This document shows positions 33,247 through 44,790 of a stretch of 53,180 bases of DNA, piece by piece. Position 1 is the first letter of the stretch, and each line of letters starts with the position of its first letter. This DNA is from a virus. Taxonomy: Duplodnaviria; Caudoviricetes. The position numbers were made by a program, and so were the translations under genes. Below the pieces are notes generated by a model. The model searched no databases. It saw nothing but the letters and a program-made list of their open reading frames with translations, and was not told the DNA's origin. The DNA is taken from positions 1-53,180 of the IMG/VR virus record IMGVR_UViG_3300024255_000034; one strand, written 5' to 3'.

Positions 33247-34485
33247 ATGTCTGATGAAATTTATGTAAATATAGGAACTTCGTTCCAACAACCCTACCAA
33301 GGACAAGGACTTGCACAAGGTCGTACACCTGTTATAGCACAATATATTGCAAGAAAACCTGCAAATGCACAAACCCCTTTTACATATCAAAATAGACAAC
33401 CTGCAAGTGCAAGACAGCCTTCATCTGCTCAAACACCTTATATTGCAAATAGACAAACCCCTTCCATAGTTCAGGCAACTGCAAATTATCCATATATTGC
33501 ATCTGCACAACAGTCATATCCTTATATTGCAAATGCACAAACTACTACTCAAAATACAGGAAGAACACCTGTAATATATCAAGCAACAGGAAGAACACCA
33601 TTCACATATGCAAGACAAGGACAAACACCATATAGTGCAACTGGAAGATTACCTTCTACATATGAAACACAAGGTCAAACACCTTACAGTTTTCAACAGA
33701 GTTATCAACAAACATATGAAACACAAGGAACACAACCTTATACATTTAATGATACTGGACGACAACCTACGATATATCAAGCACAAGGAACACAACCATA
33801 TAGTTATCAACAGAATTATCAGACCCCAAGTATATACACTGCACAAGTAAGTACCAATAGTCAAGCAACATATCAACACCCGACTACATATCAACATCAG
33901 GCGCAGATAACTTATAGACACCCTACTAGTTCTCAGAGTGTATTTCAGACTCCAGTAATAGCACAACAACCTTATCAACATCCTTATACAGCTCAAACTC
34001 CTGCAAGTAAAGTTGGAAGACAACCTACAACATACACTTATCCCGACCCTGCAATTTGGGGCCCGTATCCAGTAACAGGTGGTTTATTATCTAGTTATGC
34101 TTACTATTATGAAGGATTTAGGTCTACAAACCCAGTTGCGCCAACACAATATGGTGATGGTTTTGGTTCAAGTCCTTGGCCTAATCTGCCAAGTGTTTAC
34201 ACACAAAAACAATATTGGTTGAATAGACCTACTAATTCTACTTTATCAGGAACACTAAATGTTGGAAACTTTTCACCAACAATAACACTTGGTAGTCAAT
34301 TTAATTATCTTCAAATTATTAAAAATGGAACCACTACAAATATACCTTATGCAACCTTTACACCAAATGGTGGGCCTATGGCACCACCATCTTATATGTG
34401 GAGTGGAAGTATGCCTATTATCACACAACAATTTCCAACTCATATAATTTTTAACGGTAATAGCGTCACATTAGCATTATTTTAA
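33247..34485 (+). CDS. Repeat fibre protein A (Pro/Tyr/Gln repeats plus 153 aa head domain)
   Basis: 15 aa N-terminus, 244 aa of repeats, C-terminal domain shared with 42180. Confidence 0.8.
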   Translation: MSDEIYVNIGTSFQQPYQGQGLAQGRTPVIAQYIARKPANAQTPFTYQNRQPASARQPSSAQTPYIANRQTPSIVQATANYPYIASAQQSYPYIANAQTTTQNTGRTPVIYQATGRTPFTYARQGQTPYSATGRLPSTYETQGQTPYSFQQSYQQTYETQGTQPYTFNDTGRQPTIYQAQGTQPYSYQQNYQTPSIYTAQVSTNSQATYQHPTTYQHQAQITYRHPTSSQSVFQTPVIAQQPYQHPYTAQTPASKVGRQPTTYTYPDPAIWGPYPVTGGLLSSYAYYYEGFRSTNPVAPTQYGDGFGSSPWPNLPSVYTQKQYWLNRPTNSTLSGTLNVGNFSPTITLGSQFNYLQIIKNGTTTNIPYATFTPNGGPMAPPSYMWSGSMPIITQQFPTHIIFNGNSVTLALF

Positions 34486-34498: not shown

Positions 34499-35407
34499 AT
34501 GGCAATAGGAAATACTCAACAACCGTATACTTTTCAATATCAGACTCCATATACGTTGCAGGTAACATCTCAACAACCTTATAGTTTTCAACAACCTACA
34601 AGACAACCAGTAAATGTTCAGAATATAAGACAACAGCCATATTCTTTTACTGCAAATAGACAAAACACTGCACAACAACCTGCAATTATTCAAGTATCAT
34701 ATCAAGCGAATAAACAAACAAGTGGAACAAGACCTATTGCAACAGCAACAAGAACTTATCCTTATATTGCAAATAAACAGAATCCATTTCCATTTATTAA
34801 TCAAGGTCAGGTAGCATATCCATTTATAGCAAGAAGACCTGCAACTACACCAGTTGCACAAGCACAAGCAAATTATCCATATATTGCAAATGCACAAACA
34901 CCGTATCCGTATATTGCACAAGCACCGTATCCTTACATTGCAAATGCACAACAACCATATCCATATGAGGCAAATGCACAACAACCATACCCGTACATAT
35001 CTCAAACTCCGAGTACATATGCAAGACAGGGTAGGACACCATTTACATATAACCGTCAGGCATCATACAGTTTTGAAACACCTGCAAGAACTCCAAGTAC
35101 ATATGTGAATCAACAACCTAGTATTTACCAACACCCTGTAATCTATAGAAATCCGTATATTGCTAATGCAAGACAACCTTCAACATATCAACATGCATAT
35201 CAATCATCTTATAGTTTACAACAAAATTATACTTTCCAACAACCATACACAACAACTAGAACAGTCGGCCCGATTGCAAAAGTGAAAGGTGTGTACAGAA
35301 ATAATGCTGGAACTGTAGAGAAGGTTGACGAGATTTATGTCAATGATAGTGGAACTTTGGAGAAAATACACCAATCAGTTCCAACTGCTCAATTCAATAA
35401 GGGTTAA
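34499..35407 (+). CDS. Repeat fibre protein B (mirror partner of A)
   Basis: MAIGNTQQP start, 240 aa of repeats, C-terminal GVYRNNAG and EIYVNDSG motifs. Confidence 0.8.
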   Translation: MAIGNTQQPYTFQYQTPYTLQVTSQQPYSFQQPTRQPVNVQNIRQQPYSFTANRQNTAQQPAIIQVSYQANKQTSGTRPIATATRTYPYIANKQNPFPFINQGQVAYPFIARRPATTPVAQAQANYPYIANAQTPYPYIAQAPYPYIANAQQPYPYEANAQQPYPYISQTPSTYARQGRTPFTYNRQASYSFETPARTPSTYVNQQPSIYQHPVIYRNPYIANARQPSTYQHAYQSSYSLQQNYTFQQPYTTTRTVGPIAKVKGVYRNNAGTVEKVDEIYVNDSGTLEKIHQSVPTAQFNKG

Positions 35408-35426: not shown

Positions 35427-35759
35427 ATGGCTATACTTGCAAACATATTTATCGACCAAGGTGCTGACTTTTCAATCACTGTAGATGTCACGGACTCTTC
35501 AGGTGATGTATTAAACATGTCAGGATATTCTGCAGCTGCACAAATAAGAAAAACATATTCTTCTGCAACTGCAAGTGGAACATTCACATGTACCGTGCAA
35601 GAGGCGAGTGGTCAAGTGACCATGGCATTAACAGACACGCAAACAACAGCATTAGAAGCTGGTAGATATGTTTATGATATGACAGTCACCAGTGGTGGAG
35701 GAAACAAAACTAGAGTTGTTGAAGGTCAGGCAATTGTGACGCCAGGAGTGACAAGATGA
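35427..35759 (+). CDS. Conserved virion adaptor-like protein (Ig-like beta sandwich)
   Basis: NIFIDQGADF, AQIRK, GRYVYD and RVVEGQAIVTPGVT motifs. Confidence 0.7.
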   Translation: MAILANIFIDQGADFSITVDVTDSSGDVLNMSGYSAAAQIRKTYSSATASGTFTCTVQEASGQVTMALTDTQTTALEAGRYVYDMTVTSGGGNKTRVVEGQAIVTPGVTR

Positions 35760-39951: not shown

Positions 39952-40182
39952 ATGGCAACACAAAACAAATTTGTAGTAGAATACGGAGTCAGTGTTGGAA
40001 CCACTGAAGTAATCAATTCATCAGGTAAGATAGTTGCAGGTGCAATATCAGATTTAACTACTGATAATCTTGCAGAAGGTTCCGCTAAGTACTACGCAAA
40101 CTCATTAGTAGATACGCATCTTTCAGATGCATCTACATCAAAAACTCTGGCAAATGTTCAGATTGATGGAGGAACATTATAA
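39952..40182 (+). CDS. Small structural protein ending IDGGTL
   Basis: N-terminus paralogous to 40182 (F.V..G.SVG..EVI.S.G); TCTAAATA at 39902. Confidence 0.7.
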   Translation: MATQNKFVVEYGVSVGTTEVINSSGKIVAGAISDLTTDNLAEGSAKYYANSLVDTHLSDASTSKTLANVQIDGGTL

Positions 40183-42137
40183 TGGCTGGAGAAAAGAATT
40201 TTAATATTAAAAATGGTCTATCCGTTGGTGGTGTAGAAGTTATAACTAGTGCTGGTGCTTTAACTGGTAGTGCAATAACAGAATCGATTGACGATAGAGT
40301 TAATAGTCTATTAACAGCAGGAACAGGTATTTCATTATCTTATGATGACGGTGCAAATACACTTACAATTAACGGACAACAAGGTGATATCACTGGTGTT
40401 AACGCTGGTGCAGGTTTAACTGGTACTGCAACTTCAGGTGATGCAACACTAAACATTGGTGCTGGTACAGGTATCACTGTAAATGCAGATGATATTGCAG
40501 TTAATATGTCTGCATTCGATACAGACGACCTTTCAGAAGGTTCGACAAACGAATATTTTACAGATGCAAGAGCAAGAGCATCAATTAGTGTAAGTGGAGA
40601 TTTGTCCTATAACTCTACAACTGGTGTATTATCATTCACTAATGATGCAGGTGATATAGAAAGTGTCACTGCTGGAGACGGTTTATCAGGTGGTGGAACT
40701 ACAGGTGCATTATCACTTGCAGTAAATGTTGACGATAGTTCAATCGAAACAAGTTCAGATGCATTACAAGTAAAAGCACTTGGTATTACAGATGCTATGT
40801 TGGCAGGTTCTATTTCAAACGGAAAACTTGCTAATAGTTCAATTTCAATCAACTCAAATGCAACTGCCTTAGGTGGTGCAGTCACACTGGATACTGGTGA
40901 TATATCAGAAAATGGAAATTTATATCATACTTCAGAAAGAGTTGACGATAGAGTAAATGCATTAATTACTGCTGGTACTAATATAACAACAACATATGAT
41001 GATACAGCTGGTACACTTACAATTAACTCTTCAGGTAAAACACAAGAAGAAATAGAAGACATTGTAAATGGATTAGTAGTTGGTGGAACAAACATCACTT
41101 CAACTTATGATGATACTGCAGGAACACTAACACTTGCTGGATTATCAGATGCAGATGTCAGAGGATTAGTATCTGCTGGTGGAGATTTATCATACAACAG
41201 TTCAACTGGTGCATTCTCATTTACAGAAAGAACAGATGCAGAAGTAAGAGGACTAATATCGGTAACAGATAACGCTGGAGACGGCTCACTTGCATACAAT
41301 AGTTCAACTGGTGCAATCACATATTCAGGTATCAGTGATTCACAAGTAAGAGGTAAATTATCAGTAACAGATTCAGGTGGAGATGGTTCACTTTCGTATA
41401 ATTCAGGTACTGGTGTAATAACATATACAGGCCCAAGTGCTTCAGAAGTTCGTGCTCATTTAAGTGCAGGTACTGGTGTTGGATTCAGTGGTGGTGCAAT
41501 TAGTATTGGACAGGCAGTTGGAACTTCTGATAACGTATCTTTTGGAGACCTTACACTTTCAGGCGACTTAACAGTTAACGGCACAACAACTACTGTTAAC
41601 ACTGCAACCCTTAATGTCTCAGATAACATTGTTGTTGTTAATAATGATGTGACTGGAACACCTAGTGAAGACGCTGGTCTTGAAGTAGAAAGAGGAACTT
41701 CTTCTAATGTGTCTCTACTATGGGACGAATCAGAAGACGAATGGACATTCGGTTCTTACAATGTTAAGGCATCTTCTTTTGAAGGTTCATTGACAGGAAA
41801 CGCTTCTACTGCATCTAGTGCTGCTCAATTAACGAGTGCAAGAACAATCAGTTTGGGTGGAGACCTTTCAGGTTCTGCTTCATTTAATGGTACTTCAGAC
41901 ATTACAATTACAGCTGCAGTTGCAGATGATTCACATAATCACACAATTGCAAATGTTGATGGATTACAGACTGCCTTAAACACTAAATATGAGAGTGGTT
42001 CTAATGCAACACTAGGAACAATAACAACTAGTAATACATCGAACTCAGGTGGATATGTGAGAAACATATATCAATCAACTTCATCTCCTACAGGTAGTGA
42101 TGGTGCAGTTGGTGATTTATGGGTTCTATACTCTTAA
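40182..42137 (+). CDS. Tail fibre-like protein 2
   Basis: Internal repeats (AGTNITTTYDDTAGTLT; GDGSLSYNS); ends SSPTG...GDLWVLYS. Confidence 0.75.
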   Translation: MAGEKNFNIKNGLSVGGVEVITSAGALTGSAITESIDDRVNSLLTAGTGISLSYDDGANTLTINGQQGDITGVNAGAGLTGTATSGDATLNIGAGTGITVNADDIAVNMSAFDTDDLSEGSTNEYFTDARARASISVSGDLSYNSTTGVLSFTNDAGDIESVTAGDGLSGGGTTGALSLAVNVDDSSIETSSDALQVKALGITDAMLAGSISNGKLANSSISINSNATALGGAVTLDTGDISENGNLYHTSERVDDRVNALITAGTNITTTYDDTAGTLTINSSGKTQEEIEDIVNGLVVGGTNITSTYDDTAGTLTLAGLSDADVRGLVSAGGDLSYNSSTGAFSFTERTDAEVRGLISVTDNAGDGSLAYNSSTGAITYSGISDSQVRGKLSVTDSGGDGSLSYNSGTGVITYTGPSASEVRAHLSAGTGVGFSGGAISIGQAVGTSDNVSFGDLTLSGDLTVNGTTTTVNTATLNVSDNIVVVNNDVTGTPSEDAGLEVERGTSSNVSLLWDESEDEWTFGSYNVKASSFEGSLTGNASTASSAAQLTSARTISLGGDLSGSASFNGTSDITITAAVADDSHNHTIANVDGLQTALNTKYESGSNATLGTITTSNTSNSGGYVRNIYQSTSSPTGSDGAVGDLWVLYS

Positions 42138-42179: not shown

Positions 42180-43595
42180 ATGGCAACAGGGTCACAAAAG
42201 GTAAAAACCCCTTCGGGTTGGAATTCAACTCAGGGTGGTTGGGTAAAAACAGGTTCTACAACATGGAAAGCTGTTGACCAAATATATGTAAAAACACCTA
42301 CAGGGTGGAATGCTGCTTCAGGACAACAATCTGTTCAACAACCATACCCATACATTGCAAATAGTCAGACTCCATATATTGCTAATAGACAAAATCCTTA
42401 TCCGTATATCGCAAATGCACAGACCCCATATATCGCTAATGCACAAAATCCTTATCCGTATATTGCTAATGCACAAAGTCCTTATATTGCTGATGCTCAA
42501 CAACCATATCCGTATATAGCAAACAGTCAGACTCCATATATTGCTAATGCTAGACAACCTAGTACATATCAACATAGGTCGCCGTTTACATATCAAAATC
42601 CTTCAAATAAACAGTCACCTTATATTGCATCTGCACAACAGGCATATCCTTATATTGCATCTGCACAAGAACCTAATATTAGGTCAGCACAACAACCATA
42701 TCCGTATATTGCTAATGCTAGACAACCTAATACGTATAACCATAGGTCTCCATTTACATACAGAAACCCTGTAAATGGTCAAACACCTTATATTGCGAAT
42801 GCTAGAAGTCCAAGAGGATACAGAAATCCTGTAAATGGTCAAACACCTTATATTGCAAATGCTAGAAGTCCAAGAGGATACAGAAATCCTGTAAATGCAC
42901 AACAACCTAACATAAGGAATAGTCAAGCACCATTTACGTATAACGCTAGATATCCTGCAAATGCTCAGAGTCCTAGTAATAAACAAAGTCCTTTCACTTA
43001 TAACGCTAGATACCCTGCAAATGCTCAGTCACCTAGTAGTAGACAGAGTCCATTTACATACAATGCTAGATACCCTGCGAATGCTCAGAGTCCTAGTAGT
43101 AGTCAGAGTCCATTTACATATAGTTTCAGAAGTCCGACCACATATACTTATCCCGACCCTGCAGTTTGGGGCCCGTATCCAGTAACAGGTGGTTTATTAT
43201 CTAGTTATGCTTACTATTATGACGGATTTAGAAGTGCAAATCCAGTTGCGCCAACACAATATGGTGGTAGTTTTGGTTCAAGTCCTTGGCCTAATCTGCC
43301 AAGTCCTTACACACAAAAACAATATTGGTTGAATAGACCTAGTAGTTCTGTGTTATCAGGAACACTAAATCTTGGAAACTTTGCGCCAGGAATAACACTT
43401 GGTAGTCAATTTAGTTATCTTCAAATTATTAAAAGTGGTGTGACTACAAATATACCTTATGCAACCTTTACACCAAATGGTGGGCCTATGGCACCACCAT
43501 CTACTATGTGGAGTGGAAGTATGCCTATTGTCACATCGCAATTTCCAACTCATATAATTTTTAACGGTCAGAGCGTCACATTAGCATTATTTTAA
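42180..43595 (+). CDS. Repeat fibre protein C (Pro/Tyr/Gln repeats plus 153 aa head domain)
   Basis: 54 aa N-terminus with three VKT...W motifs, 264 aa in 35 units, head domain shared with 33247. Confidence 0.85.
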   Translation: MATGSQKVKTPSGWNSTQGGWVKTGSTTWKAVDQIYVKTPTGWNAASGQQSVQQPYPYIANSQTPYIANRQNPYPYIANAQTPYIANAQNPYPYIANAQSPYIADAQQPYPYIANSQTPYIANARQPSTYQHRSPFTYQNPSNKQSPYIASAQQAYPYIASAQEPNIRSAQQPYPYIANARQPNTYNHRSPFTYRNPVNGQTPYIANARSPRGYRNPVNGQTPYIANARSPRGYRNPVNAQQPNIRNSQAPFTYNARYPANAQSPSNKQSPFTYNARYPANAQSPSSRQSPFTYNARYPANAQSPSSSQSPFTYSFRSPTTYTYPDPAVWGPYPVTGGLLSSYAYYYDGFRSANPVAPTQYGGSFGSSPWPNLPSPYTQKQYWLNRPSSSVLSGTLNLGNFAPGITLGSQFSYLQIIKSGVTTNIPYATFTPNGGPMAPPSTMWSGSMPIVTSQFPTHIIFNGQSVTLALF

Positions 43596-43600
43596 TGGAG
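43141..43600 (+). repeat. Direct repeat copy 2 (head domain)
   Basis: About 92% identical to 34031-34490. Confidence 0.95.
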
Positions 43601-43608
43601 AATAATAA

Positions 43609-43896
43609 ATGTCAATAATAACACAAACAATAGATGGACAAGATTTTTATGTAAGAAGTCCACTTCCAACAGTCACATGTAATGGTGTGGATTATAGTGT
43701 ATCATGTACATTCCCACTTACGAATTACACTGTAGGTGGAAGTGTCGATACTGCAAATGCAATAGAACATTTTGAACTGTTGGAAACAGCAAGAATTAAT
43801 GAAGCAATAGTAGTTTCATACGGACTACCAGTAATAGAAGATGGCGTAGAAGTTTGGACTATAACAGACCAATACCCATACTTAACAGCGGTATAA
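43609..43896 (+). CDS. Hypothetical protein between C and D
   Basis: 95 aa ORF with GGAG SD. Confidence 0.7.
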   Translation: MSIITQTIDGQDFYVRSPLPTVTCNGVDYSVSCTFPLTNYTVGGSVDTANAIEHFELLETARINEAIVVSYGLPVIEDGVEVWTITDQYPYLTAV

Positions 43897-43911
43897 TAGG
43901 AAAATAAACAA

Positions 43912-44790
43912 ATGGCAATAGGAAATACCCAACAACCAAATATAGGAAATGCTAGACAACCTAATATTTATAGGAATCCCTTTACCTATAGGGTTCCGTA
44001 TATTGCCAATGCAAGACAACCTGTAATCTATAGGAATCCTTTTACATATAGGGTACCTTATATTGCTAATGCTAGACAACCTGTAATCTATAGGAATCCT
44101 TTTACATATAGAGTTCCGTATATTGCTAATGCTAGACAACCTAGTACGTATAACCATAGGTCTCCATTTACATATAGAAACCCTGTTGGATATCAGTTAC
44201 CGTTTACTTATAATAATAGACAACCATTTACATACAGAAATCCTGTTGGATATCAGTTACCGTTTACTTATAATAATAGACAACCATTTACATATAGAAA
44301 CCCTGTATCGGCACAAGAACCTAATATACGTAATAGTCAAACACCATTCACGTATGCAAGACAAGGTCAAACACCTTTCACATATCAACATAGAAGTCCG
44401 TTTACATATGCAAGACAGGGTAGAACACCATTTACATATCAAAATAGACAACCTGTAATTTATAGAAATCCTGTAAATGCACAAGAACCTAATATACGTA
44501 ACAGACAAACACCTTTCACATATCAGAACAGACAGCCTGGAACTTATCAGAGAACTGGTCAAACTCCATTCACTTATCAGAATAGACAACCTGTAACATA
44601 TGCAAGACAAGGTCAAACACCTACTACATATCAAAACAGACAACCTAGTACATATGCTAGACAAGGTCAGACACCTACTACATATCAAAACAGACAACCT
44701 GGCACATATGCTAGACAAGGTAGAACACCTGTTATCCGTTGGGACGGTGCATTACAACAAAACTGGCCAGGAACACCTATATCCTCTTAA
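43912..44790 (+). CDS. Repeat fibre protein D (mirror partner of C)
   Basis: MAIGNTQQP start, 264 aa in 35 units, 20 aa tail. Confidence 0.85.
   Translation: MAIGNTQQPNIGNARQPNIYRNPFTYRVPYIANARQPVIYRNPFTYRVPYIANARQPVIYRNPFTYRVPYIANARQPSTYNHRSPFTYRNPVGYQLPFTYNNRQPFTYRNPVGYQLPFTYNNRQPFTYRNPVSAQEPNIRNSQTPFTYARQGQTPFTYQHRSPFTYARQGRTPFTYQNRQPVIYRNPVNAQEPNIRNRQTPFTYQNRQPGTYQRTGQTPFTYQNRQPVTYARQGQTPTTYQNRQPSTYARQGQTPTTYQNRQPGTYARQGRTPVIRWDGALQQNWPGTPISS

Follow-up and report, generated by a model that had tools for sequence, protein, structure and literature searches.

Phage fibres are textbook homotrimers of parallel chains, and their triple β-helix and β-solenoid segments (T4 gp5C, gp12 and tailspike stalks) are likewise parallel homotrimers, with a fixed period. 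Long antiparallel arms are familiar from the cellular chromosome proteins SMC and Rad50, in which a single chain of alpha-helical heptads folds into an antiparallel intramolecular coiled coil. For phages the closest described precedent is the needle of T4 gp37. In the available parts of two accounts this is a trimer with a six-stranded antiparallel needle, each chain extending as far as the receptor-binding tip and returning from it (D10, residues 811-881 and 1010-1026; D11, residues 882-1009), with G921 packing on F970 of another subunit and with iron sites formed by histidines (PMC7291167, PMC6957217). Fibres of two proteins occur in phage A1002, where, according to the accessible part of their description, they are chain-like and consist of dimers strung on a rope protein. 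Here we describe two genes, C and D, of the IMG/VR virus record IMGVR_UViG_3300024255_000034 (Caudoviricetes; the whole stretch of DNA analysed, 53,180 nucleotides (nt), is called the window), whose products bear repeat stalks with unit lengths in exact mirror order. C and D are probably the two chains of one heteromeric tail-fibre shaft, running antiparallel and in register.

The finding spans 42342-44727, its limits being the codon at which the C stalk begins (residue 55) and the codon at which the D stalk ends (residue 272), and involves the following features:

42180-43595, plus strand: C, open reading frame (ORF) of 471 amino acids (aa)
42342..43133, plus strand: stalk of C, 35 proline-started units of 6, 8 or 10 residues, 264 aa, residues 55-318 (prolines 55-319)
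43912-44790, plus strand: D, ORF of 292 aa
43936..44727, plus strand: stalk of D, 35 units, 264 aa, residues 9-272, with the unit lengths of C exactly reversed

Units were made by cutting both proteins at every proline. For D this gave the lengths 8,6,6,8,6,6,8,6,6,8,8,6,6,8,6,6,8,6,6,8,10,8,10,8,6,6,8,8,10,8,10,8,10,8,10 (35 units, 264 aa), and the list of C, also 35 units and 264 aa, is that of D reversed, which reproduces what the initial annotation had claimed. All units are even in length. Two choices were made in parsing C: a 'PY' 2-mer was merged into the next 8-mer, and a single AYP was taken as PYP, the latter because the close relatives L008 and L010 are regular at this place. With no parsing at all, one ungapped antiparallel register puts 35 C prolines on 35 of the 38 D prolines, compared with 22 superposed in the best parallel register. 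When the order of the D units was shuffled (n=5000), a mean of 17.5 and a maximum of 27 prolines were superposed, and none of the 5000 shuffles reached 35. The 10-mers carry a further sign of orientation, as the extra residues are found at the N-terminal end of the unit in C (PY-) and at the C-terminal end in D (-GQT); only an antiparallel arrangement of the chains brings these ends together.

The match is at the protein level only, as had also been noted initially. Both genes are on the plus strand and the stalk DNAs are not reverse complements, since minus-strand blastn found only matches of 9-10 bases (E >= 0.77). On the plus strand, the C and D stalks share repeat units, e.g. 72 bases at 97%. 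This shared stretch lies at 42701-42772 in C and at 44115-44186 in D, on the same strand and not at mirrored levels, which suggests a recent exchange of repeat units between C and D.

To see how the mirror fares in other phages, relatives of both proteins were collected. Homologues of C numbered at least 412 at E <= 0.001 among 8000 scored candidates from a metagenome protein collection, and in a set of 1.84 billion representatives D had matches in 147 clusters (50% identity), of which 87 reached 1e-10. A relative of C is encoded in 302 IMG/VR stretches, and the loci analysed were the best 80 of these 302 plus 5 found via the head domain, 85 in all. In 82 of the 85 a C-like ORF is followed by a D-like ORF on the same strand, and the other three loci end before D. 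These loci hold 59 different sequence pairs. Their proline patterns, of which 51 are distinct, have about 23-71 units in widely differing orders. Uncorrelated unit patterns in homologous pairs had been named in the initial annotation as the outcome that would speak against pairing. The patterns do correlate: in 50 of the 51 the match is better in the antiparallel than in the parallel register, and the remaining one is a tie. In the best antiparallel register a median of 0.91 of the prolines of D were matched by the cognate C (at least 0.85 in 41 of 51 patterns), compared with 0.56 in the best parallel register and with 0.53 (95th percentile 0.76) for the 2550 non-cognate combinations of C and D. 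The cognate C was the best or co-best partner of its own D in 41 of 51. Among the 28 pairs with equal merged unit counts, 98.5% of units are equal in length to their mirrored partner, and 22 of these pairs are at 100%; within one chain the same unit length recurs at lag 2 in 44% and at lag 3 in 50%. Stalk length also covaries, from 188 to 544 aa in C and from 184 to 532 aa in D (r = 0.979, slope 0.98, 40 distinct combinations). Close relatives differ by whole blocks, e.g. an extra (10,8) or (6,6,8), at mirrored places in both genes.

The facing units are also of opposite type, an aromatic PxTY unit in one chain lying against a small PxNA, PYIANA or PNIR-type unit in the other. Types were counted in the 48 pairs with a match of at least 0.85, with the aromatic scored at unit position 4:

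Facing 8-mers: both aromatic 0; only C aromatic 343; only D aromatic 508; neither 9 (851 opposite, 9 same-type)
Facing 6-mers: both aromatic 99 (the PxGY class facing itself); only C aromatic 265; only D aromatic 383; neither 1

Common facing pairs were PYIANAQQ/PFTYQNRQ (98 cases), PFTYNARY/PYIANARQ (55) and PANAQS/PFTYRV (41). Side-chain volumes across the two chains were found to anticorrelate at even register shifts only. At the best shift, two residues off the coincidence of prolines with prolines, r is -0.43 with 1.68 bits of mutual information, and the residue opposite an aromatic is Gly, Ala or Ser in 52% (C) and 75% (D) of cases. Repeats and relatedness inflate such counts, and their weight rests on the comparison between shifts. 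It appears that the even positions of C and D lie on a common face, where bulky residues of either chain are set against small ones of its partner.

Conservation follows a polarity along the stalks. Identity between relatives is 75% over the first 72 stalk residues of C and 74% over the last 72 of D, as compared to 24% over the last 72 of C and 25% over the first 72 of D. The conserved N-terminus of C and the conserved C-terminus of D are neighbours only if the chains are antiparallel. Beyond the stalks, the region contains:

42180..42341, plus strand: N-terminal domain of C, residues 1-54, highly conserved, proposed proximal attachment end
43134..43592, plus strand: distal head of C, about 153 aa, β-rich in the AF2 model
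43609..43896, plus strand: small ORF between C and D, 95 aa, proposed head-associated accessory protein
43912..43935, plus strand: N-terminal 8 residues of D (MAIG... type), proposed distal tip beside the C head
44728..44787, plus strand: C-terminal tail of D, 20 aa, RWDG..W-P motif, proposed proximal, beside the N-terminal domain of C

In an alignment of 41 relatives, the N-terminal domain of C has a mean column identity of 80% with many invariant G/W/K/T positions, and in the tail of D residues R76, W77, D78, W85 and P86 are invariant (alignment of 41 sequences).

The window holds a second pair, C' and D', with a different kind of stalk:

33247..34485, plus strand: C', irregular stalk protein, 412 aa, same head type as C
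34499..35407, plus strand: D', partner of C', 302 aa

The units of this pair are irregular (4-20 residues, some odd-length segments) and follow no period. Gapped alignment of the prolines nevertheless scored 66.4 in the antiparallel and 45.6 in the parallel direction, while unit shuffles (n=60) gave 38.0 +/- 4.8 with a maximum of 52.5. A ...DEIYVN... strand motif occurs singly at the start of C' and again in the C-terminal approximately 45 aa of D', and the larger terminal piece is on D' in this pair and on C in the first. The head of C' is 82% identical to that of C, and the phage seems to carry two fibres with different shafts and nearly the same tip. The gap between C' and D' is 13 nt, with no small ORF in it.

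This second type also exists within one polypeptide. Seven single-chain proteins of 446-520 aa (P0067, P0087, P0091, P0093, P0100, P0107 and P0115) combine a C'-type N-terminus with a D'-type C-terminus. The antiparallel self-score exceeded all 25 shuffles in 6 of 6 tested (P0093 was left out), and in P0100 residues 2-225 align against residues 480-264. By these alignments the single-chain relatives appear to be naturally occurring hairpin forms of the two-gene pair. A search of IMG/VR did not recover P0107, and no fused forms longer than 825 aa were found, which is weak evidence. P0184, with ends of the same kind, was left out of the mirror test. Other long hits of the representative search (P0194, P0196, P0204, P0237 and more) lack runs of prolines at even spacing and seem to be low-complexity proteins with no relation to C and D.

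Taken together, the mirror, the covariation of the pairs, the unit complementarity, the polarity of conservation and the self-mirrored single chains support the antiparallel, in-register arrangement proposed in the initial annotation, and a two-chain antiparallel shaft is their simplest account. In such a shaft the stalks of C and D would run next to each other with opposed polarity, in register for all 264 residues, with each C unit facing a D unit of equal length and opposite type. Bulky and small side chains would alternate between the chains, giving a constant cross-section and a constant packed volume. Even unit lengths would keep the prolines always in one strand parity, and matched unit lengths would place the prolines of both chains at equal levels. 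Where the shaft attaches to the phage (the proximal end), the N-terminal domain of C would meet the C-terminal tail of D, both of them conserved. At the distal end the C-terminus of C would meet the N-terminus of D, and this end would bear the variable receptor-binding module, here the 153-aa head and the 95-aa accessory ORF. With extended strands along the fibre axis, at about 0.33 nm per residue, the shaft would be about 85-90 nm long, and 60-180 nm across the family. By analogy with the T4 gp37 needle, our guess is that three C:D ribbons might be arranged with threefold symmetry.

Several points weigh against this arrangement. The physical pairing of C with D, the β conformation, the trimeric state and the roles of the ends are what we infer from the sequences. 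In our judgement, small units such as PANAQS and PVNGQQ have a low β propensity on their own. The relatives are phylogenetically dependent, so the counts overstate the number of independent events. In 10 of the 51 patterns less than 0.85 of the prolines of D are matched. Three of these ten are of the irregular C'/D' type, in L080 the D gene is cut by the end of the locus, and L032, L036 and L075 have local losses of prolines. In the remaining three (L035, L046 and L059) one partner has a whole repeat block more than the other, which may reflect short-read misassembly or a real, tolerated mismatch. An AF2 monomer of P0100, made from a 7-sequence alignment, is unusable at a predicted local distance difference test score (pLDDT) of 29.8 and is counted neither way. 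The RNA-library contigs X15 and X16, which cover parts of C and D, may hold DNA carry-over, so a reading of them as transcription is unsafe.

All loci are short-read metagenome assemblies of repeats. Misassembly is expected to break the mirror and not to create it. Identical pieces of the C/D region are present in independent marine runs, and a single contig, with zero differences, runs from the end of C across the small ORF into the start of D. The whole stalk is spanned by no contig; coverage holes are not evidence. L028 and L057 are also listed with a repeat block extra or missing in one partner, and the D gene of L057 is out of frame in its 5' part; the mismatches in these two are either repeat misassembly or natural mismatched or broken pairs.

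The direction of the strands within an antiparallel shaft could be another. If the strands ran across the fibre axis, C and D would form an intertwined β-solenoid or prism with prolines at the corners, in which unit length sets the width of a side and stacked rungs need equal lengths, giving a shaft several-fold shorter than the 85-90 nm of axial strands. This model, too, is compatible with the mirror and the unit complementarity, and the repeats (8,6,6)n of 20 residues and (10,8)n of 18 resemble solenoid coil lengths. A solenoid chain must be periodic, however, and the recurrence within a chain at lags 2 and 3 falls far below the 98.5% found for the mirrored partner; moreover, the units of C'/D' are aperiodic and yet mirrored, and the corners would fall out of line at junctions of blocks such as 88, 8888 and 66666. 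The only strong length constraint is between the chains, where a proline-cornered solenoid would need a period within the chain, and we therefore favour axial strands and regard the transverse model as unlikely. Another alternative is that D is no part of the virion, but a length-matched antiparallel template or chaperone that folds C and then leaves, comparable to gp38 and Tfa. A fibre gene followed by a smaller partner gene is the typical order for a fibre and its chaperone, and a full-length template would also need the mirror and the complementarity. On the other hand, D has a conserved C-terminal tail of its own, which would lie beside the conserved N-terminal domain of C, the single-chain relatives hold both arms in one polypeptide, where the second arm is permanent, and known fibre chaperones act at the tip and not along the whole shaft, so a chaperone role for D is improbable. 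That C and D are separate homo-oligomeric fibres, with a mirror that arose by chance or by DNA-level repeat shuffling, is very hard to credit: the shared same-strand repeat units do indicate that DNA exchange occurs, but no shuffle out of 5000 matched, the mirror is kept in 41 of 51 patterns, the C and D stalk DNAs have no reverse-complement similarity, no DNA operation reverses the order of units while keeping their orientation, and copying cannot yield opposite unit types at facing positions.

With C and D read as an antiparallel two-chain shaft, gene order takes on a meaning. We infer that the DNA from mid-C to mid-D (the 3' end of C, the tip genes and the 5' end of D) is one contiguous cassette that encodes the distal fibre half. 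With a crossover at each of two mirrored repeat levels, phages could trade the tip together with the shaft length, which would explain the mirrored block differences between close relatives. The distal end is indeed variable, as C-like proteins carry after the stalk a globular head of several types, a Hint-like domain or a short Gly-rich tail. The AF2 model of the window's C head is moderate (pLDDT 58.8, predicted template modelling score 0.61), and a Foldseek comparison with the PDB gave no matches at E <= 0.001, so the fold was not recognised. An ORF of 86-100 aa fills the gap between C and D in 17 of the 18 tabulated pairs with a gap of more than 200 nt (the exception is L057), and all 17 of these C-like proteins bear a globular head. 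The gap ORFs share a ...TVGG.VD... motif, vary with the head type and are present in all analysed loci in which C bears a globular head. That of the window (43609-43896) is without Pfam or PHROG match, and ORFs of this kind may encode a tip chaperone or an adhesin.

A self-removing C-terminal module at the fibre tip is a known theme, as in the autocleaving chaperone domains of phage fibres, and some relatives of C have a C-terminus similar to these and to Hint or intein domains, whereas the C of the window has a globular head and no Hint match in Pfam. In the Hint-like relatives (10 distinct ones tabulated) the C-like protein ends with poly-Gly, Cys-Phe, about 150 aa and His-Asn. Such an end was noted in L032, L036, L040, L050, L063, L079, L083, L084 and L085 and in P0003, P0004, P0008, P0015 and P0039. 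The Gly-Cys start and His-Asn end typical of the class were found as ...GGGG-CF... and ...VHN... in P0003, P0004, P0008, P0015, L032, L036, L050, L063 and L084. Pfam scans gave Hint-clan hits in 4 of 5 relatives, most of them below gathering scores: L036 reached 28.1 for Vint against a cut-off of 27, and its Intein_splicing hit (6e-8) is below the cut-off of that family, the hits of L079, L085 and L040 are all below cut-off, and L074 had none. A Hint-like domain that ends the C-like chain would sit where the C-terminus of C meets the N-terminus of D. A Hint thioester might join the last glycine of C to the adjacent N-terminus of D and so close the hairpin covalently, like the single-chain form.

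The neighbouring genes place C and D among the tail genes. The record and the gene directly upstream of C are as follows:

1-53,180: the window, IMG/VR virus record, 29% complete by CheckV estimate
40182..42137, plus strand: B, tail-fibre protein, 651 aa, matching phrog_697 (structural protein, 4.8e-28) and phrog_11011 (long tail fiber distal subunit, 1.6e-6)

Genes upstream of C match PHROGs of baseplate wedge subunits, tail-fibre and structural proteins, and a 2217-aa protein among them matches phrog_358. Downstream of D lie a glycosyltransferase-like gene and further accessory genes. The DNA of the window has only short and weak matches in 50,697 deposited phage records. The top match, 263 bases at 74.5%, is to the tail-fibre gene of Methylophilales phage Melnitz and falls in the B gene; the others are to Pelagibacter and Puniceispirillum phages. 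B provides context and is a possible attachment partner of the C/D fibre. With C and D inside a baseplate and tail-fibre module and with a modular, variable distal end, the pair has the features of the tail-fibre class, and the predicted gene content identifies the phage as a T4-like marine myophage and the locus as its baseplate and tail-fibre module. A 'host recognition cluster' is described for pelagimyophages in the available part of PMC7029224, and the gene layout of the window fits this cluster as given there, including the glycosyltransferase adjoining the fibre genes. A 523-aa protein at 44824-46395 matches phrog_28018 (2.5e-40) and, weakly, glycosyltransferase family 8 (E 0.0047). A 110-aa ORF (35427-35759) comes directly after D'. 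Its matches are to phrog_1084 and, at 1.2e-23, to phrog_3304 ('L-shaped tail fiber protein assembly'), and it is likely a fibre assembly factor.

For C and D themselves no Pfam, PHROG or PDB entry was accepted as a match. When the PDB was searched with phmmer, C had no hits at E <= 10, and the single hit of D (E = 0.2) is attributable to chance. The Pfam and PHROG hits that did appear (Cementoin, SplA and two tiny PHROGs) are read as composition artefacts, since no stretch passes on its own, and the Cementoin and SplA hits are below the Pfam cut-offs. In the ESM Atlas the top scores obtained with D were 0.80-0.84, and a gp37_trimer cluster was among the hits at 0.80; all of these scores lie within noise, and the result is of use as a lead only. 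With C, tblastn against the 50,697 phage records found no match, and no deposited phage genome among them has a relative. Minus-strand ORFs of 91-153 aa, rich in I, L, S, R and C, run through both stalks (42318-42986 and 43882-44718); these look like by-products of the repeat codon pattern, not genes.

Judged on sequence, C and D belong to a widespread and undescribed marine phage fibre family with a two-chain or hairpin mirror architecture. We tentatively go one step further, to an undescribed fibre type in which two separately encoded, complementary chains would zip antiparallel over 180-540 residues, with a swappable distal DNA cassette and possibly with Hint ligation of C to D. If this is true, two different chains matched in mirror order represent a new construction rule for fibrous proteins, with a built-in code of unit length and aromatic or small type that can be read from sequence alone. 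It would also explain the approximately threefold variation in fibre length and the exchange of receptor-binding tips in abundant marine T4-like phages. The complementary unit code could guide the design of programmable, hetero-specific β-fibres, and the Hint-ended relatives raise the question of protein ligation at the fibre tip.

How does this arrangement compare with known systems? The initial annotation knew of no phage fibre built in this way. For the two-gene form this stands, as we found no account of C and D or of a mirror-image two-gene fibre in the literature, including the available text, supplementary files aside, of PMC7029224, PMC7291167, PMC6957217 and PMC13730344; it does not stand for the fold-back as such, of which the T4 gp37 needle is a short, single-chain precedent. 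The two-protein fibres of phage A1002, as far as their accessible description goes, are arranged differently from the C/D mirror pair. Collagen and polyproline or polyglycine-II structures are not indicated either, as there is no Gly-X-Y and glycine occurs only in some 6-mers and 10-mers. With the triple β-helix and β-solenoid segments C and D would share units of 6-10 residues, β strands plus turns, that build a long and rigid phage fibre; they differ in that the sole strong length constraint is the reversed order between two chains, and the constant coil of a solenoid is missing (0.44 at lag 2 and 0.50 at lag 3 within a chain vs. 0.985 for mirrored partners). The SMC and Rad50 arms resemble the proposed C/D shaft in having long antiparallel in-register segments, mirrored lengths and interruptions and a functional domain at the fold-back end, although they are helical and single-chain and have no sequence relation to C and D.

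The closest likeness is to the gp37 needle, to the extent that it is described in the available parts of its two accounts. The proposed C/D shaft would share its fold-back logic, with both ends of the module proximal, and its contact of a small residue against an aromatic one, and would look like such a needle lengthened and divided between two chains. The needle, however, is one polypeptide of about 130 residues without proline punctuation, whereas here there are mostly two genes and Pro-punctuated stalks, several-fold longer, with 264 residues per arm. Histidine in the C/D stalks occurs only in occasional xHRS units and no HxH, as in a metal site, is present, and no Pfam or PHROG family or PDB match connects C or D to the needle. 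The mirror, the polarity of conservation and the self-mirrored single chains, which are known from sequence alone, fit an antiparallel fold-back of the gp37 kind. C and D are thus outside the gp37 family on any criterion tested here, and yet they may work like gp37.

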